Notes under the pieces: model-generated
The model's database searches: none
What the model was told of the DNA's origin: nothing
Seen by the model: only the letters and a program-made list of their open reading frames with translations
Made by a program: the position numbers and the translations under genes
Part shown: positions 4,025 through 64,000 of the stretch, piece by piece
How the letters are laid out: the number at the start of each line of letters is the position of its first letter
How positions within the stretch are numbered: position 1 is the stretch's first letter
NCBI GenBank assembly: GCA_905178155.1
Contig: CAJINV010000004.1
Coordinates: 94,969 to 158,968, forward strand
Source: Amoebophrya sp. A120
Lineage: Eukaryota > Protista > Dinoflagellata
Direction of reading: 5' to 3'
DNA length: 64,000 bases

Positions 4025-4573
4025 TATCCTGTGCAAAAGTATGACACAAATAACTCAACCAAAGGCAATTTACCATCCCCCATCAAGCAAAAAAATCAAC
4101 ACAGTAATCTACTTGTATTTGTAATGCAGCTAGTTGATCTGATCTAACTATCAGGCCACTAAACTAGCTAGCTAAATAAGGTGTTTTTGGATGGTGAAAG
4201 GAGCCCGGAGATGGACTCTGTTGGTCCACGGATTCGCCCGAATCCGTGGACCAACATAGTCCATCTCCGGGCTCCTTTCACCATGCAAAGACACCTTATC
4301 TAGCTACCTTAGTTAATTATAATTAGTACATTAAAAAGTGGCCTATTTTACATGCAATTATCTAGCCTGTTTTGCACTATCAATTTTTTTTTTTGATCCC
4401 CCATGGTGTTTTAGATTTGGTTGAGTTATTTGTGTCATAAAAAGAATCGTACTCGTATAAATGCAAGTCTTGCATTGCAAAATTTTTTTTTTTGAAAATA
4501 AATCAGCGTGACAAATTTTAATTCTCATCCTGAGTAATGCATTTATACGAGTACGATACATTTGCAGTTCATA
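4025..4573. mobile_element. Introner-like element, family B (reverse orientation), with nested hairpin
   Basis: tatcctgtgcaaaagtat...tacgagtacgatacatttgcagttcata; DR aggag/aggag. Confidence 0.85.
4169..4306. repeat. Near-perfect hairpin with ~65 bp arms (MITE-like), nested in the family B element
   Basis: ataaggtg...ggtccacggattcg cc cgaatccgtggacc...caccttat. Confidence 0.9.
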
Positions 4574-4579
4574 AGGAGG

Positions 4580-4943
4580 TATGCGTTGCAAATGTGTCTG
4601 GGTCGTCTGGAAGGTTGTTATAGTCATGCTGATTCGCGAATGATGATGATCATGATGAACAGATTGCTATTGCAGTTGCAGTTCGCAGGCAGGCATGACA
4701 TCAAGGTCTTTCAGGAGGAGTTCTGTGCTTTCTTGTTTCTCTTTCTTCACATATGAAAAGTCCTTGCACTCTTTTCCAATAGAAACAAGAGATGCAGCAC
4801 CATGATGGATGTTGCGCGGTCACAAACCACACAAGCAGAAGCACAGCTATGTCAGACAAGATCAAAAATTTTTGCAAATCTTGCGAATTGTTGAATTAAG
4901 TATCATTTTCCAGAAGACCCGGACAGTAGATTTGCAGTTGATA
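4580..4943. mobile_element. Decayed family A element starting 6 bp after the previous one
   Basis: tatgcgttgcaaatgtgtctgggt...gacccggacagtagatttgcagttgata; DR not conserved. Confidence 0.5.
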
Positions 4944-5340: not shown

Positions 5341-6144
5341 AGTTGAGCTGGGCGGCCTCAGATGGCACCCCCGTCCCGATTTTCTCTTGATTTTTTTTGA
5401 TTTTTTTTTCAAAAAAAATATTTTGATGGTCACTCGTCGTCGGGTGACAACGTTCGCTGGCCAGCCGCGAAGCTAAGCTGCACTATTCTACTAGACCCTT
5501 CTCGTTCTAGTACTGCTTTTATTTAAAGCGTGTCCGCGTTACAACTTGCTGCTTTCTTGTCTACTTCCAGCGACCTTTTTCGGTATCCTTTAGAAGTGGT
5601 GACGTATCCTCACAAAAAGTGCTCACTTTTGATGGCCAAAAGTGAACTCCAAAAAAGTCATCTTTTCCCATTTTTACCTCAAAAAAAAAGTCTCTCGATT
5701 TTCTGGAAGGTGAAACCGAAAAAGACCCGCCATAATTGAGAATATAAGTGCGAGAGGAGACTTTTTTCTAGACTTTTTTTTTGGGTATGCAAGGTCGGAA
5801 GGCGAAATCGAGGAGGAAAAGCGAGAGACTTTTTTGGAAGCTCTTTTGGCTTCCAAAAAGTGAGCACTTTTTGTGGGGAAAGGTTGCTGCTTGCTTTGGT
5901 GAGTGTTTCACGAGTCCACCATACCACTTGGAATAGCGTCGACGCAGCATACCACGCAGCTTCGACTCAACAAAGGAGGTGGGAAGGCGCTGCCGCCTTA
6001 GAAATTCACCGGACGACGTGGGTCGCAACCTTTTTCCCAATGCAAAGTAAAGCGAAAAATTCCAAATTTTTTTTCTAAAAAAAAATCTCAAAAAATTGGA
6101 AGAAATTTGGAAGACTTTTTTCATCTGAGGGGCCCAGCTCAACT
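5341..6144. repeat. Foldback segment with nested inverted repeats
   Basis: agttgagctgggcggcctcagatg (5341) versus catctgaggggcccagctcaact (6122); inner pair cacaaaaagtgctcactttt (5611) versus aaaaagtgagcactttttgtg (5855). Confidence 0.7.
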
Positions 6145-6342
6145 TTAGAAGCACCGTCTGCGTGACAAGTTTTAAAAGGAGTTTTTCTTCTTCAAACAGT
6201 ACGGGTACGATTTGTGTAAGTTTGGGTGGATTATTTCCCATGCGAAAGCCACACTCGTGGCCTTGCTTATGTTGCTGTGGCGGGTAGTTTCAAATTTGAA
6301 TGAGGGGAGCGGGAGCAGAGCTGTGTCCTCTCATATGGAACG

Positions 6343-9300
6343 GTGGACCTCGACAAAGGACGAACTGCAAGCGGGAGAAATGCAAGCGTTGCTCCTGAAG
6401 GAAACGGACAAATCGGAGAAGAAGCTCCTGGAAGAAGTGCTAGAAATGTACTTTCAACGCCGTCGAAAGCGGATCAACATGATTTGGTGGATCATCCTCT
6501 CGACGTCGACTTGCTTCACGGCAGTAGCAAAACTGAACCGCCAGCATGTTGTGCCACGAACACCAATAAGAATAAAGAACTCGCTGAACTACAACAAGAT
6601 TCGGATACTACTCCACCTGGCCACGCTGACGCGGCATCTCCTTGCGTCGCTGAGTTCGCGGGGTCCAGAGGTCAAGGCTCTGCGTGGCAGCGGCACCAAA
6701 TAAGGACCAACTTTAATCGAAGCGGGATCGCATCCGGAGCCGCGTCGGCGGGACCACGGGAGGGAAATGACAAGCAAGAACATGATCGCCCAGACTACAC
6801 AGAACAAAGCCACAGCGCTTGCAAAAATGAAGGCAGCAAAGTTCTTGTTCCGCCTGTTGTGCTGGATGATGCTGCACCTTGTTCTGGTGGCAAGGAACAT
6901 GGCGACGAGGGGGCAAGAGTATTATCGCAAGCGCGACCTCCATCGAGTCGTGGCCTAGATTATCAAGCAAAAAAGTGTTAACGTTAACGGTTTTCCGCAG
7001 ATGGCAGTCAGGCATTACAAATTTTGCCTTCCATGCATGCTACGCAATACAAATTTGCGCACCTTTTCTGATGCGTCACTGCATCACAAATTCCGTTAAC
7101 GTTAACAATTTTTCTTGTGATATAGATGACGAGTCCACCGATGGCCCCGCCCGCGTGAAAAATATCAAAACCAAAAGTACAACTTCTATGCGGCCACCTA
7201 TCCTGAGTAAAAACATCCCCACCCCAGAGTTGTCATGCAGATTTGCAATTGCAGGAATCCGCATGTTGTGGAATCCGCATCACAAGTTCAAGAAGATCCG
7301 TGGGTCGTTCAAGAAGAAGATCCGTGGGTCGTACAAAAGTAAGTAGCTCGGTTCCAAGTCGTAGTTGTTTGTAATTCGGTAGGGAATAGAGCTAGATACT
7401 ATGACACATGCGCCGCGTTTGTTTTCGTAGCGTGACATACCTGCAGTAGCGTTTCAGTCTGGTTTTGCTAGAGTTGTCGAAAAAAAAAAAGCAGGTAAAG
7501 TTTTGCAGAATAAAAGCAGAATACAAGCACCTCCCCAGTGAAGGGGAGGCGCTTGCATGAAATTGTCTTTTTCTCACAAAAAACTTAGGACGTAGCTATT
7601 TGCTGCTATGTGCGGCTTCTCTTTTTTTTTTTCTCCCGGAGCCCGGACCTCCTCCTCCCGGACCCCGAGCCTTCTCCTCCCGGCGCCCGGGCCTCCTCCT
7701 CCTGGCGCCCGAGCCTCCTCCCCCCGCAGTCCGGGCCCCCTCCTCCCGCTGCCCGGACGTCCTCCTCCCGGAGCCCAGACCTCCTCCTCCCGGAGCCCGG
7801 ACCTCCCGGTCCAGGGCATCTGTTTCATCCGGTCCAGGGCGTAGACCCTTTCGCGCGGGTTTTTTTGGAGTTTGTTAGTCAGCAGGACCCTAAGTGGGAG
7901 TAGGGTGGATCCCTTCTGGGGAAGTGCCTCGCTTTTTCGGGATGTAACAGCCACTGATCCTGGTTGACTTGGAGCTGCTACCGCTTCAAGCATTTTCCGG
8001 CAACTTCTGCGCTGCGTGCGCTCATTCTAGACCCGGTTACCCGGGGGCAGGGAAATAACGTGGTCTGCGTGCCCGTGGTTGCGAGTTTGGGTTGCAGCTG
8101 CGCTTGCTTCGCAGGCTGTGTTCAGTCTGCTTTCTGTCTTCCCCTTGGGGGCAAGTGGGGCTGGGGCTGGCGCTGTTCCCCCCATTCAACCACCGGTGGT
8201 GGGGTTCTGGGGGGTCTTGCCCTGGGGGCCAGGTGGTGGTGGAGTGGGCCGCTCCCCGCTACGGAAGCTGGGCGCGGCCTGCTTGACCCAGCCCCAATAG
8301 GCGCGGTCCAACGGGCCGCTTGGGTGTGTGCTCTGGATAACACTCGGAAGGAACGCAACGAAATATGGCGTTCTCAACTGTTACATTCTCAACTGTTACA
8401 TGAATTTGTCATGCAAAAACAGCAACAGGGAAAGGGGAAAGCTTGCAAGTCTTGCATCACAAATTTGGCACGGATTCAGATGCTGTTTAGCCCTTCGATA
8501 ATTTGTCATGCGAAGCAGCTTGATCGGCTTGCGGCTCATGGTCATTTTGCATGACAAATCATGTAACAGTTGAGAATGTAACGTTTGAGAACGCCATAAT
8601 ATCAAAACCAAAAGTACAACTTCTATGCGGCCACCTATCCTGAGTAAAAACATCCCCACCCCAGAGTTGTCATGCAGATTTGCAATTGCAGGAATCCGCA
8701 TGTTGTGGAATCCGCATCACAAGTTCAAGAAGATCCGTGGGTCGTTCAAGTAGAAGATCCGTGGGTCGTACAAAAGTAAGTAGCTCGGTTCCAAGTCGTA
8801 GTTGTTTGTAATTCGGTAGGGAATAGAGCTAGATACTATGACACATGCGCCGCGTTTGTTTTCGTAGCGTGACATACCTGCAGTAGCGTTTCAGTCTGGT
8901 TTTGCTAGAGTTGTCGAAAAAAAAAAAGCAGGTAAAGTTTTGCAGAATAAAAGCAGAATACAAGCACCTCCCCAGTGAAGGGGAGGCGCTTGCATGAAAT
9001 TGTCTTTTTCTCACAAAAAACTTAGGACGTAGCTATTTGCTGCTATGTGCGGCTTCTCTTTTTTTTTTTCTCCCGGAGCCCGGACCTCCTCCTCCCGGAC
9101 CCCGAGCCTTCTCCTCCCGGCGCCCGGGCCTCCTCCTCCTGGCGCCCGAGCCTCCTCCCCCCGCAGTCCGGGCCCCCTCCTCCCGCTGCCCGGACGTCCT
9201 CCTCCCGGAGCCCAGACCTCCTCCTCCCGGAGCCCGGACCTCCCGGTCCAGGGCATCTGTTTCATCCGGTCCAGGGCGTAGACCCTTTCGCGCGGGTTTT

Positions 9301-12300
9301 TTTGGAGTTTGTTAGTCAGCAGGACCCTAAGTGGGAGTAGGGTGGATCCCTTCTGGGGAAGTGCCTCGCTTTTTCGGGATGTAACAGCCACTGATCCTGG
9401 TTGACTTGGAGCTGCTACCGCTTCAAGCATTTTCCGGCAACTTCTGCGCTGCGTGCGCTCATTCTAGACCCGGTTACCCGGGGGCAGGGAAATAACGTGG
9501 TCTGCGTGCCCGTGGTTGCGAGTTTGGGTTGCAGCTGCGCTTGCTTCGCAGGCTGTGTTCAGTCTGCTTTCTGTCTTCCCCTTGGGGGCAAGTGGGGCTG
9601 GGGCTGGCGCTGTTCCCCCCATTCAACCACCGGTGGTGGGGTTCTGGGGGGTCTTGCCCTGGGGGCCAGGTGGTGGTGGAGTGGGCCGCTCCCCGCTACG
9701 GAAGCTGGGCGCGGCCTGCTTGACCCAGCCCCAATAGGCGCGGTCCAACGGGCCGCTTGGGTGTGTGCTCTGGATAACACTCGGAAGGAACGCAACGAAA
9801 TATGGCGTTCTCAACTGTTACATTCTCAACTGTTACATGAATTTGTCATGCAAAAACAGCAACAGGGAAAGGGGAAAGCTTGCAAGTCTTGCATCACAAA
9901 TTTGGCACGGATTCAGATGCTGTTTAGCCCTTCGATAATTTGTCATGCGAAGCAGCTTGATCGGCTTGCGGCTCATGGTCATTTTGCATGACAAATCATG
10001 TAACAGTTGAGAATGTAACGTTTGAGAACGCCATAATATCAAAACCAAAAGTACAACTTCTATGCGGCCACCCACGAAAATATCAAAACGAAAAATCCCC
10101 CCTCCCCATATCAAAGCGGAAATCTGTGATGCAGATTTGTTGTCACAAATCAGCTTTGTTATGCTACACGGGAAAAGATGCGGACTGTAGTGCTGGGTGG
10201 CGTGGGGGAGCCTTGCATCTTCAGCATGATAGGAGGCAGCTGAGAGTGGGAAACAGCATGACAAATTGCCTGCAAACGAGACCACGACTGCGGCTCTTGG
10301 CCTTCTAGCATGACAAGTCGATTTGGTACCTCAAATCCTGCATCACAGATTTCCATTTCGATATGGGGAGGGGGGATTTTTCCGTTTGATAGAAAATGTC
10401 ATCGACCACCAGCACGACACCCGCAATCGACTGGGCAGAGGAACTGGCCAGCATCAAGGCCGCAAAACGCACCCTGGGTGCCGCGCGAGGAGGTGGAAGT
10501 GCTGGTGGACCCAGTTCTAGTAGCACAACTACAACTTTCACTTCGGTCCCGACCGCGGCTGCCCTTGCCAGTCCGCGCCCGCCAGTTTTGCCGCTTCCAC
10601 CTACTGGAGCTGCTACGACCAGCACGACCCCATCGTCATTTTTTTCAGACGGTCGATATAATTATGTCACTGAAAGAACTGAAGACAAAAGGTCCACTTC
10701 TCCAGGCGCTTTTTCTTTGTCTGTGGCACACCGCCGCTCTCTGGCTGCCACGAAGACGACGCGGAGTAGTTTTCCGAAAACAAAGACGCCTGAAGGTATG
10801 AGAACCGACGCTCATCGTGATAGCGCGCAACAAAGTAGCCAGCACAAAAAGGGTGCTGCAACGCGGGCAGAGGACCGTGGCTGTAGTTTGTGGTCAGCAG
10901 CATCTCCAAGTAACTTGCCGAGGACCAGCTGGGACGCAGAAGACCAGGATCAGGAATATGGCTACTCACTCAGGTGTTCTTACAAGCTCAGCTGTAGTTT
11001 TTACCACAAACAGGCGTGGACTTTGTCGTGCATGAGCAGCATGGGGAACATGCAGAGTCTTGCGCAAGCTTATCGCAATACTACAAATCTCGCCGGATGT
11101 CACGGGGGCTTCGGGCAGCTCCGGGACTACTTGTTATGCGCAATTCAGTGAGAGTAGGCCTAGCCCTACGCCAGATCGTGTCCTTCTTGATGCGCGTCGC
11201 AGTAGATTTCGACTCCTGTTGTAAGTAGAACGGTTGGCATTGTAAAACACCTGCGCAGGTCATAAAAAGAACGTAGTGGCTGATCATCTTTGCCCCGATT
11301 TGCAAAATAAGAACGAAGGCGACCTCTGGGCCGCTCTTGATGATAGTGACGACACCGGCGCTCTTGGTGCTGCCCAACATGAAGAGAGCGGAAGCGATAC
11401 GTCGCCAAGATGCGCTGTTCTCTCACACGGAACCTGGCGAGCAGAAGCACAAAGCCTCTGTAGGCCAACGACACACACAGGAGCGGCCATAGCAAGAGCT
11501 ACGCAAGGACAGCACCGTAATACTAGCAGGAGAAAACGAAACGTAGGAATAAAGATGCGGCAGAACGATCGTTACACCCTTACTTCATCTTCACAAAACG
11601 AAGACTCCGCGGCAACAGCGCAGCACCTATCTGCGAAAGAGATTCTAGCCAATCCCGAGGAGAACCAGATGCGAAAGCGGATGCAGCTGTCATTGGCGGA
11701 GATCTATCTTCTGCAAAAGTACTCGTCTAAATAATCGCGCTAGTCACACATGTTAACAGAGCAATCCGCATGACAAGTGCAAATCTGTATGAAGTTTTCC
11801 ACTTGATGAAATACATAGGTTGCCAACATGCAATTTCCACTGGTACGTACACGTAGTACGATTCCGATATATTTGAAGTTGAACTTTTGCAATGCATAAG
11901 ATGGCCGACGACTGGGATGCAAAGCGGGAACGGCTCGTGGCGGCGGCAGAAAAAAAGAGGCTGAGGAAAGCGTTGAACAGGGACGAAAGATTGTCCACAG
12001 GCCACATCAAGGAACTACAAAGCATTTCCATGCAAGAAAACCAAAACAACGGCAACAAGAATAGCCACGACGACGACCTGCGAAAAAATCGCGGAACACC
12101 ATCTAAAACCGGGGCGCCGTGGTCCTCAGAAGATATAATAACACGAAGTAGTACAAGAACTACTAGAAGCGGCGCCGGCGCGGCCCCGAGAAGAACACTT
12201 TCTGTAGCAGAAACAAACCTTCCTGGTCCAGAAAGATCTGATGTGCAGAACAACAAGTACCTCGGAGGGGGCGACACTACGCCGCATGGTACCCGCGTGC

Positions 12301-15300
12301 AGAAGATTTTGAAGGAATATGAAACTGTGGCTCACCGCGCTTCCCGCGATGGTGAAGAAACCGACATGCTGAATGATCCATGGTGCGGCGACCCTTCTAG
12401 CGCGGTAGAGATGGTGGACAAGCTAGAGGTACTAGAAGATCAACATGGGAGGAGGTGGAACAAAAGCAATGACTTTCATATGCTGAAGAACCATCAGCAC
12501 GGACCGTGCGGAAGATTCCTCTTCCCTGGGGGTGAAGGAGAAGTGTCTGCCTCTCCGACAGAACAAGCCCCAAGACTCTCGGAACTGGTCCTCGTGCACG
12601 ACCCGGTGGCTGCAGCTCCGAGGACTCGTGAAGATTTCGAGACCCTAGTCACCACCACGAAAGCAGCACCTTCCGACGCCGTGGTCGCATCAGCGTCGTC
12701 AAGGAGTAGTAAACTTCGTATCGTTTCGGAGATTGAAAGAGAACGAACGGAAATTGACCTGCATATCCAGGAAAAAACACCCATACCCATCCAATTTGTC
12801 ATGCACAGCATGCATAAAGAAAGTCCACTATTTGTCATGCAAAAAATGGATGGGGATGGTTGTTTTTTCCTGGATACTGCAGCTGGAAATGTTACAGCAA
12901 CAGCGCCGGATGAAGAAACAGCAAGGCCGTAGTTGTTCGAAGACGGGACCACGAGGAGCAGTAGAACTACATGGAGCAGAGGACCAAAAAGGCTGCGCCG
13001 TCGATGCTGGTGCGACCGAGCCCGAACAAGAAGCTGCGGAACCATGGGCTCCTGCACCTGGTGCAGCTTGTTCACGACCTTGCACGGGGAATTTTCATTC
13101 GCCAGGACCACGACTCCGACTGCTGGATCAACAGCAAAGAGAGGCGATCATGGGGGACCAGCGTGGATTTGACCCGGAGCTGCTGCGCGAGGAAAACAGG
13201 AACGACGAAGCCGGCGCCGGTGGCGAGGCAGCAGGGAGGGCAGGGACTACTTTTTGTTCATCTTTGCGCAGAACTACAAGCGGTGGGAACAAGCAGAAGA
13301 TGCGGGCGGACCAGGAAGTGGTAGCCGAAGGAGAAGTGGTGCAGCAAGTCCGTGGAGGTGAAGATGGAAATAACACGGACTCGTGCAATTATACCAAAAG
13401 TTGGGACAAAGGTAAAGCAAATGAGATGTTGACCACCAGGAGCAGCAGGTTGCAGCCAGCTCCTGCACTTGAAGTAGGAGCTGCACAACGAGAGGAGCTC
13501 GACGCCTCGCGCACCTCCGCGGATATTCATTGCAAAAGTATATTCGCACCCGTCGTAATTATTGCGGTCATGCGTGAGAACAAGAAGTCTCATTTTCTAT
13601 CTGTTCTAGCATGAAGCATACAGATTTGCTCCGTTTTGCATCTTCCTGAGAAAATTTGTAGATCATGCGATTTCCATTTCGATTTCTGCTACCACGATTA
13701 TACTTTTACGATGCATAGCGGAGATCCTGCGGCAACTGGTGTTCGACGTCGTTCCGGAAGTAGATGCAAATAAAGGCGACGCAGGTGCGGCTGGACGAGA
13801 TGTTGACCACGAGCAACATCCTTCCACTCATGCCTTGGATGAGGACGTCGACTTCTTACCACATCCCCCGAGGACGTCTTCCACCAGCACAAGCACCGCG
13901 TTCGCCGCGCGACACGAAGATTGGCTGGCACGGGCTGAGGGGCGAGGCGGAACATCAAATAAACACTCTGGAGCTGCTGGCCGCGGGGAAGACGAGGAGG
14001 GAGAACGTAGTACGGAAGTAGAACAACGCGTCGTGGCACGACGAGGCGAACGGGTGGAGCAGGTCGGTGACAGCGAGCAGGTAATGATCTTAAACAGACG
14101 CTCAAGTGGAACAGATGTGGAACAAGCACAACGTGAAGATGATCCGTATCACCTGCATTCGCAACAACTTTGTCCTGCCTCGTCAGAGGACTCACGGCCA
14201 GGGTCGGATGAAACCAATCTTCGCTCCTCCAACACTAGGATTTTGGCGGCAGAGGAGCCGCGAGCGGTGGACGATCTCTTCAGTTTCAACTTCGAACGTT
14301 ATTGAATGTGAAAAATACGTGATAGATGTACTTTTGTGAATGGACGGCGGCTGCACATCACATCTAGCTTCGCACGTTGACAACGATGAAGATGGCATGT
14401 TGCGCATGGAGGATGCCTCAACTTCAGCCTTCTGCTTCTCGGGGACCTTCTGGCGTCTGTATGACTTCCCTTGTAGATCACATAGTCGTGTTGGGAAAAG
14501 CAGGCGTGTCAACATACAACTACATTTTTCGTAGTTAACATTTTTCAGTATACGTATGCGATGTGCATGAGCGTCAGCGTCTATCTGGAATTCACAAATT
14601 TTTGCACTGCATATGGTTGATGTTCTTCAAGATGATAACTTTCTGTCAGCGCGACACGGGAACAACCACGACACGACCCGTCGAGGAGCGGCGGCTTCCA
14701 CATTGATTAGCAATACCGAGGGTCCTCGTGGTCGTCCTCTTTCCGCCGCGGCGCCCCGGGCTTCTGGGACGAGGACAGCGAGTAGTCGATTGCGGCAACC
14801 GCGGACCATCATGTCCCTGCTGCAGGGGAACAACACCAGCTGGGACGGAGCTTCCCGCGGCCCGGGCAGCTCAACAACAGGTACAACAATCCCAAGAGCT
14901 GCTGCATCTTCAGCATCTTCGTCGTCGCGGACGGACGCTCTGTTGCAGCAGCTGAATTCCAACGGCAACCTGGAGGAGGCACGCCCGGCAACCGCACCAC
15001 AGCAGCTGCAACGCCATGGAGTATCAAAATGAAAAATCCCCCCTCCCCATACCGAAAAGATTTAATATTTTTGGAAATTTATGATGCTGATTTGTGGTCA
15101 CAAATCGTGTCTGTCTTGCGAGAAGGCAACTCCGCAGGTTCCGCCGCATTGTGCAGGCGGTTTGTCATGCTGTGGGGCATACAGTGCTGACGTTTTTCGT
15201 GCTAAGTGCCTAGGCCAAAACCTCTCTACTCGTCACACTTGGCATGGGGCTGCAGTGCTCTCCAGCAAGACAGCGCGGCTCTGTGTACACAAGGCCAGCA

Positions 15301-16477
15301 TCGGAAGTCTCGTTTTTATATGGGGAGAGGGGATTTCTCCTCTCAATATGGAGCGCCAGGTGGTCTCGGTCGTTTCCCCGCGGCGACCAGCAGCACCAGC
15401 GGCGCGACGAGCGTTTTGACGTCGACGCTCCGCTATCAAGTGCAAAAATGTCTGGGTCTGGAAGATTTTTGCTACGTTTGTCATGCATATTTTTCATAGC
15501 CCATGAGGCCTGTAATGCACGACCTAGCATCACAGATTTTTCAAGGGCCTTCTGATGCGTATTCCGCATGAGAAACGCCCACTCCGCGTAGCACCAACTG
15601 CACTCCTCTTGCTGGTCATGCAGTAGAGTTTTTTTTTACCTTCCACGTAAAGCATGTAAATTATCACCTCCGGTTGGTAGAGCAATCGGCTACCGAGGCA
15701 CGACAGGGGGCGTCGCTACTTCACTTCAATTCGAATTCAATTCAATTCCAAATAAGACAGCATCACACATACCCAGACACTTTTGCATTTGATATCCGCA
15801 AGCTGCAGTCCTGGACCAAGGCGCGCGTGCTGTACACCACGTATCAAATGCAGAAGTGTCTGGGTCTGGAAGATTGCAACTTGTCATGGTAAATCTGAAG
15901 CGTGCCAAAATCTGTGTTGCGTGAGTGCCAAAAGCTGTCCACTTTTGACCATCAAGTTGGAACGCAGTTTCTCATGCAGAATAGGCATGGCAGAGACCTC
16001 GCAGAGTCTGTCATGCTAAGTCCCGCATTCCAGACCTCATAAAATCTGCATGACAAGTCTACACTCTTCCAGACCCAGACACTTTTGCACTTGATACCAC
16101 GCAAGAATGCACCATCTGCCTGGAGCCCATGTGCAGGGGCGATCGGGTGACTACCTTGCCCTGCGGTAACGGAAAGCACGCCTTCCACGCGGAGTGCATC
16201 CAGGACTGGGTGCTGCAAAAGATGAAGTGCAGTGAAGGTCGCGAGGGTGGACGTGTATGAACTGCAAAAGTATCGTACTCGTATAAATGCATTACAAATT
16301 TCCTCAGCATGAGAAATAAAATTTGTAATGCGGATTTGCCTTAAGAAAAAAGTTTGCATGATTACAATACGAATGCGATACTTTTGCCCAGGATAACGTG
16401 GAGGGGGGCACCATGATCACGGGACATCAAATCCATCGTCGTTGCCGTTCTGCCCGCTCTGCAAAGAACGCATTTGA
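6343..16477 (+). CDS. Multi-exon gene for a large low-complexity protein with a C-terminal RING-H2 finger (putative E3 ubiquitin ligase); 5' end uncertain
   Basis: Manual splicing gives ...YTTQECTICLEPMCRGDRVTTLPCGNGKHAFHAECIQDWVLQK...SLPFCPLCKERI* (TGA 16475-16477); the frame is also restored across elements at 6961, 10081, 11705, 12764, 13524 and 15022; linkage across about 10.8-11.3 kb not resolved. Confidence 0.75.
6961..7122. mobile_element. Introner-like element, family G
   Basis: tatcaagcaaaaaagtgttaacgttaacgg...ccgttaacgttaacaatttttcttgtgata; DR tagat/tagat; splice gives GLD|DESTDG. Confidence 0.9.
8364..8598. mobile_element. TIR element family D, copy 1 (right end of the composite)
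   Basis: tatggcgttctcaactgttacattctcaactgttacatga...tcatgtaacagttgagaatgtaacgtttgagaacgccata; flanks cgaaa/atatc do not match. Confidence 0.85.
9801..10035. mobile_element. TIR element family D, copy 2
   Basis: Same sequence as 8364-8598 at offset 1437. Confidence 0.85.
10081..10391. mobile_element. Introner-like element, family C
   Basis: tatcaaaacgaaaaatccccctccccata...tatggggagggggattttttccgtttgata; DR gaaaa/gaaaa. Confidence 0.92.
11705..11898. mobile_element. Aged family B-like element
   Basis: tatcttctgcaaaagt...acttttgcaatgcata; DR agatc/agatg; splice gives LSLAE(I/M)ADDWDAKRE. Confidence 0.75.
12764..12876. mobile_element. Introner-like element, family F (113 bp)
   Basis: tatccaggaaaaaac...gttttttcctggata; DR ctgca/ctgca; joins EIDL|QLEMLQQQ. 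Confidence 0.92.
13524..13717. mobile_element. Introner-like element, short TIR (B-like)
   Basis: tattcattgcaaaagtata...tatacttttacgatgcata; DR gcgga/gcgga; joins SA|EILRQLVFDVV. Confidence 0.85.
14300..14613. mobile_element. Decayed TAT...ATA element
   Basis: tattgaatgtgaaaaat...atttttgcactgcata between two long ORFs; DR lost. Confidence 0.45.
15022..15348. mobile_element. Introner-like element, family C
   Basis: tatcaaaatgaaaaatccccctcccc...ggggagaggggatttctcctctcaata; DR tggag/tggag. Confidence 0.9.
15434..15794. mobile_element. Introner-like element, family A
   Basis: tatcaagtgcaaaaatgtctgggt...acccagacacttttgcatttgata; DR tccgc/tccgc. Confidence 0.93.
15842..16096. mobile_element. Introner-like element, family A
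   Basis: tatcaaatgcagaagtgtctgggtctggaag...cttccagacccagacacttttgcacttgata; DR ccacg/ccacg. Confidence 0.93.
16256..16395. mobile_element. Introner-like element, family B (140 bp), inside the RING finger
   Basis: tatgaactgcaaaagtatcgtactcgta...tacgaatgcgatacttttgcccaggata; DR acgtg/acgtg; removal brings CPLC into frame. Confidence 0.93.
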
Positions 16478-21107: not shown

Positions 21108-24100
21108 ATGGCAAAAGCGAGGCCCGCAGAACCATCTTCACGACGTCCTCAATGCCGCCGCAGTGCTGGCTCCACTGCGAACATTCAAAGAAGAACGCCT
21201 CCGAAAGGAATGAAGTGCAGTGAAAATCGCAACACGTACCTGCGCCGCATATCGACAGGTCCCCGGTATTCATTGCAAATATGTTTATGTCAGGGTTTGG
21301 CGCATTACACAGCTTGAGATGCTGCCTTTTGGACTCCGAAAATTTGTATATGCATGCGAAGCAAGAGGAGTCCAGCTCTTGGCAAACGCTGAAGGGGCTT
21401 TTGTCATGCGGTAGGGGCACCACGACCAGCAGGAAACCCTCACGAAACCTGTGTTGCTAGGGCATGCGTCACAGACTCAGACATCATGCAAAATGTGCAT
21501 GAGAGAGACTCAGACTCATGCATCGTGGATTGATGCAGAGCGGGACCTGTTCCGGCGACAGGCGCTATGCAACCAACCAGCCAAGTTTTGCAATCTTCCA
21601 GACCCAAACATGTTTGCAAATGATACCTGTGCCGCAGTGAAACGACAGCACGACCTGCAACATCACCCCAGATCTACTAGTAAGACCCCTTCGGCTGCTA
21701 GTTCATGTGGCGCCCCGTCTCCAACAAGACTGCTTGCGCTCTCCAGCATCTTAAAAGTTGTTCTGTTTGCGCACCAACTCGTCCTTTTATTCGCGGCTAG
21801 CGCAGGGAGCGGCAGCTCCGGAGGAACAAGTCCGCCCGTGTCCAAAATTCCGAGCTTTCTGGGCAAGAAGCGGAGCAGCACTAAGCAGGGTGATGCGGAA
21901 GAAGATGGAGCTACTACTTCTATGCATTGCAAATATGTCTGGGTCTGGAATATTGCAGCTTGTCATACTAAGTCAAAGTCTGAATCATGCAAAAATCAAA
22001 ATGTGTGTTGTATGATTGCCAAAAGTTGTCCACTTTCGACCAGGTTGGGAGGGCGTTTGTCATGCAGGATAGGCATGATGTTGATAGAGAAAGAGATCTC
22101 ACAGCGCCTATCAACATCCCAGGTGCTGCATTCCAGATCTTATGGGTCATGGAAAGCCGGCATGACAGATCTTGCATTCTTCCGGACCCAGACAAATTTG
22201 CATTTGATAACTTCTTCTGGGACGATCATGGGGGGGGTCTCCGGCTCCGGCTCCTCCTCTTCCCAAACCGCCGTCTCTCCCTTCACAGACGCCGCATTGA
22301 ATGAGTACGGGCATCCGCAGGTCTCGGGAATGGACGTTGACGAGCAAGAGTTCACTTACGGCGTGGAAACCCCCAGCACCGAACCCGGGCGCCTGCAGTA
22401 CCTCCGCAGCATGATGCTGGATGACTTACCTGACCAAGAGATCGAAGAGATCACCAAGGTGTGTCAGGAAATTTTTCGCGTTCCCATGGTACTGGTCAGC
22501 ATTGTCGAATCGGAGCGGCAGTGGTTCAAATCAGCCATCGGACTCGGATGCGCCGACACCGCGCGGGAGGTTATTACAATGAAAAATGCCCCCACCCCCG
22601 AACTTGGGAGCATTTGTATTGCAAACCTTTCCAAGTGAAACAATCGCCCTCTTGCATCTATCAGCATCGCAGGTTTTCAATCGTGAACCGCAAAAATTTG
22701 TATTGCGAAAGACCCCAGCAAAAGCGGCGCTTGTCATGCAAGCGATGCGATACAAGCCTAGACTCTGCATCAGAAAGATTCATACTCCTTTCATGCATGA
22801 CAAAAAGTTTTCATTTGGAAACTTCGCATCACAAATTTTTATTTTTGTAATTTCACGGGTAGGGGGTACTTTTCACTGTAATAGAGGCGTCATTTTGCGC
22901 ACACACTTTGCTGATGGACTGTCCGGAGGTTCTCTACGTCCCGGACGCGACGCAGGACCTATCAAATGCAAAAGTGTCTGGGTCTGAATGAATGGAACTT
23001 GTAATGCTGTCTGCGGATTCAGATCCTAAAAATGTCTGTGTTGCATGAGCAGCAGCAAGAGGAGTCAGCTCTTGGCACGCGGAGAGGGCCGCATTTGTCA
23101 TGCGTATATTAGAATCAAGAAGCTCTCAGAAAATCTGTGATGCTAGCACCAGTTAGTATCACAGACTGACCTGAGTGACGGGTCATGCAAAATGTGCATG
23201 ACAAGCCCCGACTCTTCCAGACCCAGACATATTTGCAATCCATAGGACCGGCGTTTTTGCTACAACCCCCTGGTGCGTAACGACCCGAAGCTGAGGCTCT
23301 ATTGCGGTTGCCCAATCATCGTGGAGGGCGTCCGCCTGGGGGCGTTGTGCATTCTGGACACCATCCCCCGCGTGGACATGACGCGGGCGAAAGCCATGCT
23401 CCTGTGCAACTTCGCCGACATCGTTTCCGCGGCGCTCGCGCGCACGAAGAACCGCAACGAGCATTTTGACATGCTACACAATAGTTGCTTTCTACTGGAC
23501 TTAGAGCGGGAGCCCGAGCACGAAATCGAACGGAAGTTGCTAAGCGAGGAGCCGACGCTCCTGAGCCAAGATACCAACAGCGAGAAGGTCGACATAGCCG
23601 ACCTTTCCAGCGGCGCGCCTCGGTCCTCGCCGCCCTGGCAGCAGAGCAGCGAACTGCGCGAGAACCCGACTAAAGTCGAGAAGTGCAAACGCAACGAAGA
23701 CGGTGAGATGGTTTGCGTCGACGACGCCGGGAACGCCGGCGAAGGCAAGACGTTTGGTCGCATCTTGTACTCGAACCGTCTGGGAAAACAGCTGGTTGAT
23801 GCAGCCTTGAGGCCGACAAATGAAGCGGAGGGCAGCGGAGGAGCCCGGGCAGCAGGTCGGTCCCGGGCAGGCTCGGCCTCGGCGACGTTGTCGGGCGGGG
23901 AACCAATCTGTGGAGCGCCGTTCTCCCGCTGGATTCCTCCGGGGAGTGCGCAAAACACCACGCAAGACGAAGAGGTGCATCACTTCTCCGATTTGGTGCA
24001 CGTTACCGACCACCAAGCGGTCCGCGATGCAATCTTCAGCAGGGCGGCGATGCGCAGGTCGTCGGCTGCCAGCGTGGTGGTGTTTCTGGGGACGCGCCGG

Positions 24101-36200: not shown

Positions 36201-39007
36201 GAGTTTCTCATGCAGGATAGGCATGAGAGCGCTCGCACAGAATCTGTCATGCTCCGTCCTGCATTCCAGACCCCATGGGTCATGCAAAAGCTGCATGACA
36301 AACCTGGCAATCTTCCTGACCCAGACATTTTTACATTTGATACGGTGCACCGCGATCGCATATTGAGAAACACGAGGGAGCAATACGAGCGGTTGTTGGA
36401 GCAAACCGGCGTTGTCATGGGGGACTGCCGGGAAAATGTTCCTACCCTAGAAGAAACCAAATCATAAAACAGCATCGCGGTGGTCGTCCTCGGCGAGTCG
36501 GCTGCTCGACGAGAATGAAGACGACTTGCATCACAAACACCACGCTGCTCTCTTACCTGCCCGAAAACTTGGCAGGCCAGGTAAGAGAGCGCCGTGGTGT
36601 TTGGGCCAATTTTTTTTTCGGCCGACGCGACCTTTTTTCCTTCCAAGCGCCACGCTATGCTCTTACCTGGCCTCAAAGTCTGGAGGCCCAGGTAAGAGCA
36701 CAGCATGGCGCTTGTGCTTCAAGAATGTGAATGTCTCACGCTTTGGCCACCTCCTCAGGCCAGCACGTTTTCGCATCCCAAACACCACGCTGCTCTCTTA
36801 CCTGGCCCCAAAACCTGGCAACCCAGGTAAGAGAGTGCCGTGGTGTTTGGGCGAATTTTTTTTTCGGCCGACGCGACCTTTTTTCCAAGCGCCACGCTAT
36901 GCTCTTACCGGGCCTCAAAGCCTAGAGGCCCCGGTAAGAGCGCAGCGTGCTGCTTGTGCCTCAAGATCACCCCCCTTATCTGGCTTTCTCGGGCCAAGAC
37001 ATTTTCGCATCACAAACACCGCGCTGCTCTCTTACCTGGCCCCAAAACCTGGCAGCCCAGGTAAGAGAGTGCAATGGTGTTTGGGCCAACTTTCGGTGGC
37101 CGGAGCAATCTTTTTCCCCGGCGCCACGCTATGCTCGTAGCTTGGCGGCCAAGAATCTATTTTTGATCTACTCCCTCCAAATTTTTAGTCGAAGAAATTC
37201 ACTACCAAAAACCGTATCGCGGTGGTCCTCGGCTAGTCGGCTGCTCGACGAGAATGAAGACGACTCGCAAGATTATCCTATTTGAAAATGTCCCCACCCT
37301 ATTACTATCTATTATATTCATGCGAAAGTAGAGGTCTACAGAGGATAAAAGAGAGGTGGCCGAGAGGTCAAAAAGAGGCCGACAGAGGTAAAAAAGAGGT
37401 CGACAGAGGTGAAGAGGTGGCGCGGGAGGTCTTTCGAGAGGGAGACCGAGAGGCGGCGCGAGTATAGCCCGCCGAAGGGTCCACCCTTTAGCGCCGCTGA
37501 AGCGCCTCGGAGGGTGCAGAGAGGTGGAAAGGAGGGCAAGCGAGAGGTGGGCAGAGGTGCCGAGAGGTTGCGCGAATAAGGCGGGACCTCTTGCGCACCC
37601 TCTCGGCGACCTCCCGGCCACCTCTGTAGCCCTCTGCCCGCGAGTATAGCCCGACTATTAGCGGGGACCCCCGAGAGAGGTCAAAAAGAGGGGCCGCGAG
37701 AGGGTCCAAAAAACCCGAATCCGCCCGGCACGCGGCCGATTTTTCTGGGGCTTTTTCATTGCGCAGGCCCACGCCCTCTCGTGCTACCACCTCGCGCACC
37801 CTCTCGCGCACCCTCCCGCGTCACCCTCTCGCGCGTGATCAAAAAAGGACAGCGCGGCCCCCGTTCTGCTTCGGTAGGCACCTACGCCGAGGCGGTTTCG
37901 CTTCGTCCTCAAGCTTCGTTGCGGCTGCTCCCTGCGCATAGCGCCGGAAGGCGCGGGAAGCGCGCAGGAAGCACAGCGGGCTGAGATGACGCAAACCGCG
38001 CCGGTATTTCCCTCGACCTATCACGTCGCGCGCAATCAAAGCCATGGCGTTGTGGCCCTGTCCGCAAATAGTCCTGCCCCGCCACAACAGCCGCTCGCCC
38101 CGGCGTCAGCCGGGGCATGGCTGGTAGTTGTAATGCAAATCTGCATGCTGAGAATGTTTCTCATGCGGAGCCCCATGAGAACCATTCTCTAGTCGTGTTT
38201 TGAAATTTGTCATTCTCCAATCAGCATGGTATGCTAGATCTGTGATGCTGCTCAGCTAGCTCAAACAGCACTACGCTACGAATCCAAATTTGTCATGCAA
38301 AACAGCCAAAGCTTGTGGATTTGTCTAGCCGATTCCCCATCTTGACTATGGTGTGGGGACGTTTTTACTCAGGATACAAGATTGATGAATTCCTTGTTGA
38401 AGATAGTAGAACAAGCACATTTAAATTTATCCCAGTTAAAGCTTTGACGAAAAACAGCAAGCTCCTAGTACAGGGAAAAGGCAACTTCTCCGCAGCCCCC
38501 GTGTAGCGCCGTCGACGCCGATTTGCCATACGTTTACGTGATTATGGTTTTTTTTTCATCTTGCATAACTGTGCACGGCAAGCCGAAATCTTTCTATCAG
38601 GGGGTGGTGTTCGAGCGGTTGTGGCATGTCATTTTCGGCGAGGCGTTGGTTGTCGAGAGGCGCAAAGACCGAAAGGATCTAGCGGGTGAGACTATCAAAT
38701 GCAAAAGTGTCTGGGTCTGGAACAAAGCAACTTGTCATCCTAAATCTGAATCGTGTAAAAATCTGTGTTGCATGATTACCAAAAGCTGTCCACTTTTGAC
38801 CTAATCGAGAGGCAGTCTCTCATGCAGAGTAGGCATGTAGAACTCTCACGACAGAATCTGTCATGCTATGTCCTACATGCCAGACGACCTCATGGGTTAT
38901 GGAAAACCTGCAGGACAAATCTGGCAATCGTCCAGACCCAGACACTTTCACTTTTGCAATCCATAGAGACTGTCATACGAGGATGGCACGATTACGACGG
39001 ACCTTGA
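33233..39007 (+). CDS. DUF3431-like protein (multi-exon)
   Basis: Motifs in the expected order: VVVRCSEDISWL; DEASGYLTYILQAWPQFPEWVAFLQ; AGAQFAVHRDRILRNTREQYERLL (after splicing); GVVFERLWHVIFGE; splicing of 36.45-38.6 kb unresolved. Confidence 0.75.
33523..33832. mobile_element. Aged family H element
   Basis: tatgttggaaccgtcaggattgaaatcgtcaaag...ctttgtcgatttcaaacctgacactcccata; cctga on both sides but offset 3 nt on the left. Confidence 0.75.
33949..34224. mobile_element. Introner-like element, family A
   Basis: tatgcatcgcaaatgtttctgggtctggaa...ttccagacccagacac..tttgcatttgata; DR aaaaa/aaaaa. Confidence 0.85.
34298..34606. mobile_element. Introner-like element, family C
   Basis: tatcaaaaggaagcatcccctctccccatatc...gatatggggaggtgcaatttttcctcacaata; DR ggggc/ggggc. 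Confidence 0.85.
35161..35342. mobile_element. Aged family B element
   Basis: tatgccttg...gagtgcggtactttgcgcaggtggata; DR ttctt/ttctt; joins TASF|FRKRQFPGWCW. Confidence 0.75.
35706..36027. mobile_element. Introner-like element, family C
   Basis: tatcgtgaggaaaaatcccccctcccc...ggggtgggggcttttttcactttgata; DR agcct/agcct. Confidence 0.9.
36081..36342. mobile_element. Introner-like element, family A
   Basis: tatcaaatgtaaaaatgtctgggtc...gacccagacatttttacatttgata; DR cggtg/cggtg; joins QFAV|HRDRIL. Confidence 0.93.
36474..37269. mobile_element. ~690-bp hairpin-array insert flanked by ~55-bp imperfect direct repeats
   Basis: atcgcggtggtc..ctcggc.agtcggctgctcgacgagaatgaagacgact.gca at 36474 and 37216. 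Confidence 0.8.
37274..38376. mobile_element. Family E element carrying about 0.8 kb of GC-rich cargo
   Basis: tatcctatttgaaaatgtccccac...gtggggacgtttttactcaggata; flanked by caagat/caagat; right end matches the left end at 7199. Confidence 0.75.
38693..38965. mobile_element. Introner-like element, family A
   Basis: tatcaaatgcaaaagtgtctgggtctgga...tccagacccagacactttcacttttgcaatccata; DR gagac/gagac. Confidence 0.9.
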
Positions 39008-48211: not shown

Positions 48212-51200
48212 ATGGGAGCGCCGTCGACGGGACAATACAAGCTGGGCTTCCTTGGGGGCGGCATGATGGCAGAGGCCTTGATCGGCGGGATCTTAAAAAA
48301 GTCCCTCGTTTCGCCGGAGTCTATTTTCGTGTCTGACATGAGCGCCGACCGTTTGGCCGTGCTGGAGAAGAAGTACAAGGTTCGGACGACGCAAGAGAAC
48401 GGCGAAATTGTTTGGCAGTCCGACGTATCCTGTGCAAAAGTATCGTACTCGTATAAATCCGCTGCTGGCATGCATATAACTTCTCACCAACCTCTCACCA
48501 ACTTATCATGAACTTCTGCCCAAGCTTTTCACCAACTTCCCAGCTGTTGAGAAGTTGGCGTGGACCCTTTACCGCGGTTGTTGGGAAGCTTGATGCGGAG
48601 TTGAAATCCGCACCAAGCTCCCCACAAGCTTGAGCTTCTGGCTAGGACGTCTGAAAAGGAATATTCGTCCGGGCCTCGATTCGTGGCCGCGTACGCAGTC
48701 ACGAATCAGGCTCCGTGATGGCCCTACTTCGGCTGCTAAGCTTGTGGAAGATAATTTGATAATCTTCTGCACCAGGAGACTTTCGAGGTCCTTGTCGTGC
48801 ACAAAGCAAGCACTTCTCGACGAACACCCCGGCGCATTTCGCGGTAAGCTTCGAGCTTTTGGAGGCGTCATGCAAGTTTTTGCATGACGCCTCCAAAAGC
48901 TCGAAGGTTGCCGCGAAATGCGCTGGGATGTTCGTCGAGAAGTGAAGCGAGAAGTTGTTGAGAAGTTGTTGAGAAGTAAGTTATTCAATTCGGCCATAAT
49001 TGATGTAGGACGCACGCAACGTCGCGGCTTTTTGTTAAAACAATTAAAACGCAAGCACAAATCAACTCACTTATTTAATATAGGCAATTGACTAATTAAT
49101 AGATTAATCAATTGATTACGAAGTGGCGCCAAGTGAAAACGGAGCAGGGGCAAAGCTTGCACGCCGAAGCGGCGCGCAGCTCCACGCACATCGTCGAAGG
49201 CAGCTATTCTCCCTTCCGGCGCTTCCGTCTTTGATGGCTGCACGCAGGACAGGTGCGCGCGCGCAGACATCACGGTCGCGCTTCCTGCCGCCTCTTGTAT
49301 ACGGCTTTGCGCGTGGTGCCGTCGTGCTAACTGATGAGACTGCGCTGCAGATAAATGGACAGAACAGGACTGCCGTCTTCTTCCCATTTGTCTGCAGCGC
49401 TGTTCCTTCCCGCTCCAAGCAGCGAGCACGATATAACTCGCAGCGGCGGAGTGACGCGTCGCTTGGTCGAGGCGAGAACGACGCCAGCACGCCGCGCCAC
49501 TTCTCACCGACCTCCGCACCAACTTCGCGGCCGACTTCTCGCCAACTTCTCCGTCAGTTTACGCATAAAAATGCTAGCGGATTTATACGAGTGCGATACT
49601 TTTGCACAGGATACGACGTGATCCTTATCGCCGTAAAGCCGCAGGGTTTCCCCGCCTTGTGCAAACAGGTGGATCAGTTTTTGGAAACGAAGGCGTGCCA
49701 GCCACCTGGAGCAAACTCATCTCCAAAACCGCGGTATCCGGCTGGCAAGGTGTTTGCGAGCATTATGGCGGGGGTAACGCTACTACGCATTGCAAATTGA
49801 ATTTATATGTCTGGGTCTGGAATAAACCTGTAATGCTATTAGCGACTGCAGATCAACATGCTTATATTTATAATACATACCGCTGAGTGGAGCCCAGCGT
49901 GACAAATTCTGAGGCGCTTTCTGATGCGTAGCGCGCTCGCGCATTAGATGAAACTGCGCTTTTTCATATAGGAAACAGAGCTCGTCGCTTTTGTATTTGT
50001 TGGTCCTGCAGTACAGATTCTGCAGGAATCCAGAACACGCAATGCAGGTTCAACTTTTATTCCCGACCCAGAGTACATATTTGCGATCCATAACTGCAGA
50101 CGCTGGGGGAAAGCATCGGACGACACGGTGACGTAGTGCGGGTCATGCCAATATCAACTGCAAATATGTGTGGGTCTGGCAGATTACCAGGTTTGTCTCT
50201 GTCTGGCATATTTTGCATGACCCGTGATGCTTGTGATGCATGCGCTAGCATCACAGATTTTTTGAAGCAAGGCTTCCTGATGCCTATCTCGCATGTTGAC
50301 AAATGCCCTCCCCTCGTAGCACAAACTGGACTCCTCTTGCTGGTCCTTACGCAATACAGATTTTCATTTTTTTAGACTCCAAAGACAGCATGATCACAAA
50401 GTGCAACCTTCCAGAGGACCCAGACCTATTTGCAGTTGATAGCCCAACACACCCGCCATGGTCAACGCAGCGGCGTCCGCCTACGCCCTCCACCCCCTGC
50501 ACTTCTCGAAGGACGGCGAGGCAAAGGTGCCCTTTGTGGAACAGATCTTCAGCAGCATCGGAATTTGCTGTCAGGTACCTCTACGGATACGACAACTTGT
50601 TTGTCATTGAAGGTCTTCTACTTGATTCGTTTGGTTGCAGAAAGAACTAGAGCCAGCCCAAGAAACTAGAAAAAAAATTTCTTTACTTATTCTTGCTTTA
50701 GTGAATAAAATGAACATGGATTTACTTCCACGACGTATATGTTGTATAATGGCTGTGTTAGAAGAAATGAATGCCGTGACGATCTTCTTCTGACCTAAAA
50801 CTCAACTCCATCTGTATCTCATTACACGATCCGACACCACCACCACCACCACCAGCTTCCGTCTGAGACTTACATGGATGCAGTGACTGGGCTCTCTGGA
50901 TCAGGACTATCGACCGAGTATCGAAGTAGTTCTAATATTACCTGCGCCGGCAAGAACTACGCCGCGACCTTTCCTCCGGAGACATGCATTTTTTGAATAA
51001 TACTTGCTCGTTGCGCTTCCGGTTGTACTTAACTCTAAAGTGCCTTACGTTAAAAGCAATTCAAAATGATTTCAAAAGGAATTCAAAAAAGTGCACTTTT
51101 CGTTTTTCCGTAAAATTGGGTGTGGATTTCCTTCATTTTTTCGGATGCGTGGCTTCTTTTTTCGGCGTCTAATTTCCGCCCTGTGTCTGGCGGCCTAGCG

Positions 51201-62949: not shown

Positions 62950-64000
62950 TACGTGCATCGGTTCACAACTACACAACACTTTTTCTTTTTTAGACTGAAG
63001 CAGAATTGTGACTGAAACTGGATTACAATTAGAATTTTTACAATCAAGATTTACAGATTTATTGTTGTATGAGAAGCATGTCCTTGTACGTGATGTACGC
63101 GCATTTTTATATATACTTTTGTATTGCATAGACACCTGGCAGCGGTACCGGAAGAAAGTCATCCTTTTCCAACAAGAACCTGGATGAAACGGCAGGCAGG
63201 CAGGCGGAATTCCCGCCAATGGTGGCTGTGCTGGTACAGGAGCGCAGTTTTGCTTTTTTCCAGACCACAAATTAATGTAAATATTTTTGGTGCCCAACTT
63301 CTCGGTTTTCGTCTTTTAGAAATAAGTTGAACGTCAACGCTTTTTGAAATTCTCTTTTGCCCCCTACTTCTTCCAAGCAGGATGGATGAGGATCGAACGA
63401 ATTATTTGCGACGATTTTATCGAAGCCTGAGTCTATTCATTTACTTTTACCGGCAACTACCTGATTATATTTTTGTCAACATACTTATATAATTTCTTCT
63501 TCATCTAACTCTACTCAGATCGACAACCGCTTTGGGGAGTGCTTGCCGGCTCCACGTTATCCCGGAGAAAAAAGTGTGTGAGTGTAGGTCTGTTATGCTG
63601 AACATAAACTACATTCTAATGCTATGTATATGTAGTTTGTTCTTACAACACTCTTTGTCATGGTTGCAGATGCGTGTAGTCCTCGGCGATTTTCCTCACA
63701 GCGATCTTTTATTATGTCCACGCAGCACCCGATAGTACGGCTCGTGATCTTGTTCTCTTGCTTCACATCAAGTCTATGTATGTCCTCGACTGAGTACCAG
63801 ATGTGCGAAGAAGTAGGGGTGCTGATGAGCTGTGGGAAGAGGAGGACGATCAAGACGCTAGTAAGTACTACTAACATAGCCCAGAGGTCGTCGTCGTGCA
63901 GCTGGTACTTCTTACACTACTAGCACAGTTTTTTTACTGGACACCCGTTGGCCGACGCATAGTTCGTCATCGCTCGCTGCGAGTGGTCATCACCACGCTC

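Follow-up and report, generated by a model that had tools for sequence, protein, structure and literature searches.

We analysed a 64-kb stretch of DNA (the window) from Amoebophrya sp. A120, with a focus on a tandemly doubled insertion at 7162–10072 that combines ends of different introners and stands directly upstream of the known exons of a RING-finger gene. The window is crowded with short elements that start with TAT, end with ATA, have paired ends and carry a 5-bp direct repeat, which fits the published account of A120 introners (PMC7789003; here and below, cited papers are represented by portions of their text). That account describes introners with TAT ends, seven free bases and an A-run, flanked by direct repeats of 3–5 nt and forming hairpin introns; non-canonical introns make up over 60% of the A120 total and no U1 was found, while the introner border is given a position called 'unknown' and splice sites termed 'variable' with respect to the hairpin (PMC7789003). 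Introners of Amoebophrya are also known from other reports (PMC12130899, PMC11282704), and among the sequenced strains non-canonical introns are confined to A25 and A120 (PMC12005148, PMC11453091).

Our DNA evidence consists of contigs of run X1, which may be the sample behind the assembly, while the RNA-like evidence consists of contigs of runs X3, X4, X5 and X6, all short-read data from one sample and one study. Of 11 listed runs seven were analysed, and none of the 11 is on record as RNA. The contigs were built on 31-mers, and sequences rare in the sample drop out of them. All four RNA-like runs lack introns that the DNA run retains, X1 being unbroken over 10365–12805.

Anatomy and copy number of the doubled insertion

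Along the + strand, on which all features of the locus and the gene lie, the region opens with a coding exon (6304–6959; X4 spliced contig depth 7.98) that is in frame with the RING open reading frame (ORF) in the reconstructed empty allele, followed by an ordinary spliced introner with the direct repeat TAGAT (6961–7122; loose end before 7123 in X4). The 5-mer GAAAA at 7157–7161, which recurs at 10076–10080 and 10392–10396 (0.002 per position in simulated exon), precedes a 37-bp piece found in three identical copies, at 7162–7198, 8599–8635 and 10036–10072 (38 bp counting the preceding A). The whole repeat is made of two 1437-bp units plus the third 37-bp piece, and the two stretches between the pieces, to which we refer as units 1 and 2 (7199–8598 and 8636–10035, 1400 bp each), differ at a single one of their 1400 positions (7314 A / 8751 T). 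Each unit starts with the left end of an introner, E, and a body (7199–8363 in unit 1, with a 22-bp tandem array at 7633–7806 and parts common to other genomic loci; 8636–9800 in unit 2), and closes with a 235-bp element, D (8364–8598 and 9801–10035). The third piece, together with CAC and GAAAA, fills 10036–10080 and contains the ATG (10062) at which the matching public protein starts. It is followed by a second ordinary introner, element X (10081–10391), with the direct repeat GAAAA, which is spliced (loose ends behind 7198 in X4, X5 and X6), and by the exons (10396–16474) of P0001, a 1282-residue low-complexity protein of Amoebophrya sp. A120 with a C-terminal RING finger (PF13639/PF17123).

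The two ends of a unit belong to different elements. Its first 32 bp show a 90.6% match to the right end of a long element at 37274–38376, and pairing between E-left and D-right is weak, at −3.7 kcal/mol compared to −10.3 to −49.7 in 17 other end pairs catalogued as elements; the two ends match at 8 of 16 positions, and the 1400-bp unit as a whole lacks the paired ends of an introner. D, on the other hand, has arms of 43 nt that are 93% complementary and intact (22/24), with end-profile scores of 9.4 and 8.1 (D itself being included in the profile). It starts with TAT and reads CTC at end positions 11–13, where the family rule has AAA. Its flanks, CGAAA and ATATC, have one of five bases in common and hold no direct repeat of 3–5 nt. 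D is repeated genome-wide with many other flanks, reaching a summed X1 contig depth of ~80,000–110,000 compared to ~41 for single-copy sequence. The composite is bounded exactly, by the TAT of E at its start and the ATA of D at its end. Deletion of 7199–10072 plus element X yields ...VKNIKTKSTTSMRPPTKMSSTT with the frame kept, and deletion of 7162–10396 likewise keeps the frame open. An earlier reading made from the letters alone (the original prediction) had described an E end at the start of the unit, a D element without its own direct repeat, a triplicated 37-bp piece and a frame restored by removing 7199–10072, and our check of the sequence agrees with this anatomy.

At 7358, DNA and RNA contigs branch into a sequence absent from the window, showing that the first 160 bp of the E end also occur at another locus. 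Within the body, the 3' part (9510–9800) is many-copy in the genome (depth ~390–1500 compared to ~41), without recognised bounding ends. No donor for the unit interior lies inside the 64-kb window, and an exact 28-nt body pattern gave 0 matches against metagenome contigs.

The 37-bp piece, which consists of an A and 36 nt beginning with a TAT at 7163, was taken in the original prediction to start with a mimic of an introner end; it scores instead like a genuine one. On a profile built on 60 real ends (leave-one-out median 11.4, quartiles 6.7 and 14.8) the piece reaches 7.2–9.4 bits, a score attained by none of 57 exonic TAT sites, the best of which has −3.0. It matches the left end of X at 13 of 14 positions and the end at 11898 at 19 of 26, and it is preceded by GAAAA, the 5-mer that flanks X. 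In simulated exon, the rate of 13/14 matches to any of the 60 ends is 8e-6 per nt. Given the profile score, the GAAAA flank and the open frame after removal of 7162–10396, the best reading of the 45 nt starting at 7162 is that of an exonised remnant, old and in frame, which carries an orphan left end (G-left); the repeat unit then consists of A, this orphan end, E-left, body and D. In both units D-right adjoins the orphan end with a 1-nt spacer (8598/8600 and 10035/10037), compared to 6 nt in the next closest right-left end pair in the window list.

The junction between successive units is present in DNA as a 93-nt X1 contig, running from the end of D through the piece into the start of E, at a depth of 101.3. 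With a single-copy depth of 33–44.5, the expected junction depth is 37–50 for one unit, 70–95 for two and 103–139 for three. Furthermore, X1 depth divides at 7358 between the unit (69.3) and the other locus (32.9), a ratio of 2.1:1 (derived from bin means, assuming that the branch ends at 7358 as in X6). The contigs are unable to phase over the 38-bp repeat, the means are inflated and X1 may be the source of the assembly, and we therefore put the copy number at 'at least two, possibly three'. The tandem repeat itself is confirmed, at ~2–3 times single-copy depth, and within the limits of contig data the doubling claimed in the original prediction holds. No contig shows the A at 7314: single contigs of X1, X4 and X6 each read T, and X5 has no cover at this position.

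Splicing of D and its −1/+4 register

D is spliced out in three of three RNA-like runs analysed at 7121–7360 (X4, X5 and X6), in which the last bases of the body are joined straight to base 5 of the piece, matching loose ends before that base in the same runs. The join lacking D is absent from the DNA run X1, which also lacked a path from the upstream exon into the piece. The cut falls 1 nt before TAT and 4 nt after ATA, giving a spliced intron at 9800–10039 for the second copy and, by pairing and register, an intron that would span 8363–8602 for the first. Since D has no direct repeat, the cut cannot slide and the register is fixed; −1/+4 is the only pair of offsets that fits. The RNA contigs show both the splice and its register. 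The intron removed from the RNA has AT..AT borders and is thus non-GT-AG, and a single register is seen across the contigs, which drop rare forms, with no cut-site variation or indels. In its predicted fold, D forms a stem that closes exactly at TAT/ATA and leaves the flanks unpaired.

Other introns of the gene agree with this register. The −1/+4 offsets are allowed at 7/7 junction entries tested (six distinct introns, with D entered for both copies) and at nine of ten introns tested against P0001, the tenth being X, which is untestable in this way because its test flank precedes the protein start. An old introner without a direct repeat at 10957–11264 allows −1/+4 or −2/+3 (X3 joint 10954>11268); for an introner with a 4/5 direct repeat at 11705–11898 the RNA rules out 0/+5 (X3 joint 11699>11899); and for another old, repeat-less introner at 14300–14613 the public protein P0001 allows only −1/+4 or 0/+5. 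It is likely that −1/+4 is the general rule for A120 introner introns. The two offsets sum to 5, and a normal insertion with its 5-bp duplication would therefore be removed without trace. In terms of mechanism, the splicing machinery may measure from the base of the TAT/ATA hairpin, so that an intron would comprise 1 nt, the element and 4 nt; pairing of the ends would be required, the direct repeat would be dispensable, and exactly one 5-bp duplication's worth of sequence would be removed. We infer an enzyme that measures from the stem. No published cut register for A120 introners was found in the open-access text searched.

An unspliced X3 contig of an old repeat-less intron (10926–11294) has a depth of 4.97 beside 27.8–55.4 for spliced contigs, so that this intron, whose element ends have decayed, is partially retained. 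The long element at 37274–38376 is flanked by the 6-bp repeat CAAGAT (37268–37273 and 38377–38382), for which −1/+4 would leave one extra base, and direct repeats matching at 4/5 positions also flank the introners at 22572–22883, 50152–50441, 58013–58343 and 62903–63130.

The unpaired E end, by comparison, is read through, as seen in unspliced contigs that run from the piece into E in X6 (depth 9.68) and X3. No splice joint at the E end is listed among the contigs at 7121–7360, and the contigs so listed account for all of the binned depth over the piece in X4 and X6. X4 has no listed contig from the piece into E, though upstream (7.98) and body (11.7) contigs are present; a short low-depth path lost in assembly would explain this gap, and so would a clean skip. 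Neither E-left nor 7163 gives any in-frame product at −1/+4, and a transcript read through into the E body meets a stop at 7344–7346. The suggestion that the locus tests the need for end pairing is borne out at one locus and in contigs, with the paired, repeat-less D spliced and the unpaired E not seen spliced. The specific RNA junctions that had been proposed fared less well, as none was shown: the 7163-to-X-right junction, the E-left-to-D-right junction and the retained mini-exons are out of frame at −1/+4 and have no counterpart among the listed joints, and a skip from 7198 to 10073 would be indistinguishable, as the piece exceeds the 31 nt of the k-mers on which the contigs are built.

Two further candidates for a partner of these left ends were considered and rejected. 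A weak E right end at 8339 (12/16 match), whose splicing along with D would add 51 in-frame nt per unit, has a profile score of 0.17, below the 10th percentile (1.6) of the 60 real ends; an equal match occurs at 12 of 644 ATA sites in the window, and RNA contigs retain the stretch. A single large intron from 7163 to the right end of X is out of frame at −1/+4, and an X4 contig keeps the piece.

Origin of the composite and fate of the gene

The upstream exon and 7127–7161 together form 230 stop-free codons, whereas none of 20000 shuffles is stop-free. As these codons are open and in frame with the RING ORF after removal of the insertion, the two parts were likely one gene formerly. No start codon was identified for the upstream exon, and homologue searches found no public protein containing it; P0002, a candidate homologue (E 4.9e-5), was rejected as spurious, the match covering 24 residues in a repeat protein. 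At 5605–5881 lies a decayed element whose left end is good and whose right end no longer has its ATA; it may represent an old intron in the upstream part of the gene.

The downstream part has its own beginning. The public protein P0001 starts with MRPP at the Met encoded inside the third piece (ATG 10062); the last 420 nt of the body are ATG-free, so that the first ATG after the D splice is the one at 10062, and the spliced leader is A/C-rich. In X4 the depth rises from 7.98 upstream to 21.6 at the D junction and 94.8 downstream, leaving the upstream exon 12-fold below. In X5 a 696-nt contig comprises 96 nt before the piece, the piece and the downstream exon, with zero cover at 7257–7360, and in X3 the depth of 27.4 at 9749–9765 is close to that downstream (27.8), with 3.4–11.9 further up. 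The downstream RNA probably arises mainly inside the unit, which the original prediction did not foresee. A new RNA 5' end near 9700 is likely, so that the RING mRNA would begin within the final ~100 nt of the unit 2 body (X5 and X3 contigs). The 5' half of the gene would then run into the stop at 7344–7346 in the E body, and most RING mRNA would start in those last ~100 nt and be translated from the ATG at 10062. It is likely that the insertion splits the RING-finger gene.

Taken together, we read the locus as a real, doubled composite of introner ends that likely splits a gene, in which the repeat-less D is spliced at −1/+4 and the E end is read through, a reading to which we assign a probability of roughly 60%. 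Several points weigh against it. The RNA label of the runs is a guess, the contigs lose rare forms, and all come from a single sample and a single study; the two raw RNA runs analysed, X9 and X10, contributed 0 reads and carry no weight. Contig depth is a flat mean that repeated ends inflate, which makes the copy number inexact, and no donor locus or empty allele was seen, no whole genome having been searched. D alone fixes the register, which the three other informative introns narrow. Contigs cannot show a transcript start, 3' bias may steepen the depth gradient, and the body stretch at 9749–9765 is repeated elsewhere (depth ~730). The sole listed exit from the piece in X4 leads downstream, which also fits a clean skip, and as the DNA contigs too lack a path from the upstream exon into the piece, a missing path is weak evidence. 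Finally, an RNA-like X4 record (record 16) of 1540 nt from 7220 exceeds the 1143 nt of body that precede D.

The least certain part of this reading is how the composite arose. Both of its junctions lie exactly on element ends, which makes a transposase the most likely maker. In the origin that we favour, at somewhat under even odds, the exon would already have held a 45-nt remnant, old and in frame, that carried an orphan left end, and the introner transposase would have joined an E-left/D-right composite to it, placing D-right 1 nt beyond the orphan end and E-left 36 nt within it. That joining would have duplicated 37 bp, and unequal exchange or rolling copy through the 37-bp repeat would then have doubled the unit, making the structure the product of one aberrant composite insertion beside an orphan end followed by doubling. 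Multi-step routes through a circle are a possible but distinctly weaker account. Still less probable is an unequal crossover, inside D, between two alleles with ordinary insertions, one having D nested in an E element where the piece ends and the other having D where it starts, which would give one unit with 37-bp flanks that was later doubled. It requires only normal 5-bp insertions and accounts for the two different flanks of D, a very abundant element (~80,000–110,000 compared to ~41 in X1), and parts of the body do occur at other loci; however, it needs two independent insertions of the same D family 37 bp apart, and it leaves unexplained why D joins 1 nt from a genuine end (8e-6 per nt). 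Two other sources were rejected: circular-intron RNA as the source of the junction would be expected to leave a 5-nt spacer rather than 1 nt, and had one reversed-ends event of the maize type occurred, a 5-bp repeat would be expected at one of the outer junctions, where there is none.

Doubt about the split itself takes two forms. The gene may not truly be split, if the insertion is lost via the 37-bp repeat from some transcripts or cells and full-length protein is made. The frame restored by removal would allow this, and in X4 the upstream spliced contig enters the piece with no contig listed from there into E; yet E-left gives no in-frame product under −1/+4, X3 and X6 read through from the piece into E, upstream depth in X4 is 12-fold under downstream, X5 has downstream RNA without upstream or E-body cover, and P0001 lacks the upstream exon, which together make this improbable. 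A poorer prospect is that the unit body is the native promoter and 5' untranslated region of the RING gene, with D as an intron, and that the upstream ORF is a separate gene brought in by rearrangement. A public protein that begins in the third piece, an A/C-rich, ATG-free spliced leader and an upstream exon found in no public protein would all suit it, but the 230 upstream codons contain no stop and share the frame of the RING ORF, a copy of the piece also stands before unit 1, and the intact arms of D (22/24) between flanks alike at 1/5 bases fit a new junction better than decay. Hardly credible is that assembly error produced the second copy, or that a free 1437-bp circle supplies the extra depth. 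In its favour, the copies are 1399/1400 identical, their lone difference is absent from the contigs and a circle would produce an identical junction contig; against it, the junction depth of 101.3 lies above the 37–50 expected for one unit, and any circle would need to be present at a mean of about one per genome.

Elsewhere in the window, an element at 4040–4439 is nested 15 bp inside another at 4025–4573, and a third (4580–4943) starts 6 nt after the latter, without a direct repeat; insertions at 4025–4943 thus cluster at element ends. A 234-bp tandem hairpin array at 36528–37240 lies between two ~40-bp exon-like copies (about 36470–36527 and 37215–37265) and is possibly a second insertion with a long flanking repeat. 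A large nested inverted repeat, with arms of 183 and 248 nt that are ~80% complementary, occupies 61226–62407.

Known systems and the meaning of the register

The locus shares TAT ends and hairpin introns with the A120 introners described previously, to which it adds a repeat-less copy that fixes the border at −1/+4; the portions of that account covered here contain no composite, doubled or gene-splitting insertion (PMC7789003). Among other systems, the nonconventional introns of Euglena are alike in that a hairpin joins the ends and the cuts lie at fixed, asymmetric distances from paired motifs; there too the register was derived from 'non-slidable' introns, and an origin from miniature inverted-repeat transposable elements is proposed (PMC12501133). 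The code itself differs, with Euglena introns cut 3 nt before CDG and 5–6 nt after CHG and the next exon starting with a purine (PMC12501133), whereas here the intron runs N1-TAT ... ATA-N4 and the exon after D starts with C. In SOS splicing, described in C. elegans and human cells, inverted-repeat pairing triggers removal of DNA transposons from mRNA without GU-AG, by means of the factors RTCB, AKAP17A and CAAP1; that process is described as imprecise and as leaving indels (PMC12779559), in contrast to the one register seen here, which cancels a 5-bp duplication.

As for the rearrangement, maize Ac/Ds offers cases in which the ends of two elements bound captured DNA, and in which host tandem repeats are separated by element ends and neighbouring genes gain new expression (PMC4270019; 10.1101/2020.08.10.245175). 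Maize composites keep the normal 8-bp target duplication (PMC4270019), while the flanking repeat here is 37 bp and not 5. The targeting of ends by the insertion sequences (IS) IS30 and IS911 and the circles of IS2 are similar in placing a right end beside a left end and in forming tandem dimers (PMC9333248, PMC3299598), and the spacer of IS2 is 1 bp (PMC3299598, PMC9333248), comparable by analogy only to the 1 nt found here. Those systems are bacterial and have known transposases. The window holds one junction type in two copies, and we claim no homology.

Our broadest proposal, which we put forward tentatively and at less than even odds, is that A120 removes any element with paired TAT/ATA ends by exact, hairpin-measured splicing at −1/+4, and that the joining of right ends 1 nt outside orphan left ends builds gene-splitting tandem cassettes. 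If true, the 5-bp duplication would be cancelled without being read, in a precise counterpart of SOS splicing, and tens of thousands of exonic transposons would come cost-free; the cassettes, by analogy with the joining of bacterial copy-out IS elements, could split genes and supply new 5' ends. The rearrangement, a single event in one strain, matters less, although it shows that introners can split a gene and give it a new 5' end. The main value of the locus is the splice register. Direct repeats have hidden the true cut sites of A120 introns (PMC7789003), and here two signals are separated, as pairing without a repeat suffices and the unpaired end is not seen used. With a fixed −1/+4 register, tens of thousands of intron borders would be corrected and the harmlessness of insertion into exons explained; the register would also define a substrate, a stem with arms of 1 nt and 4 nt, for finding the nuclease, ligase or altered spliceosome.

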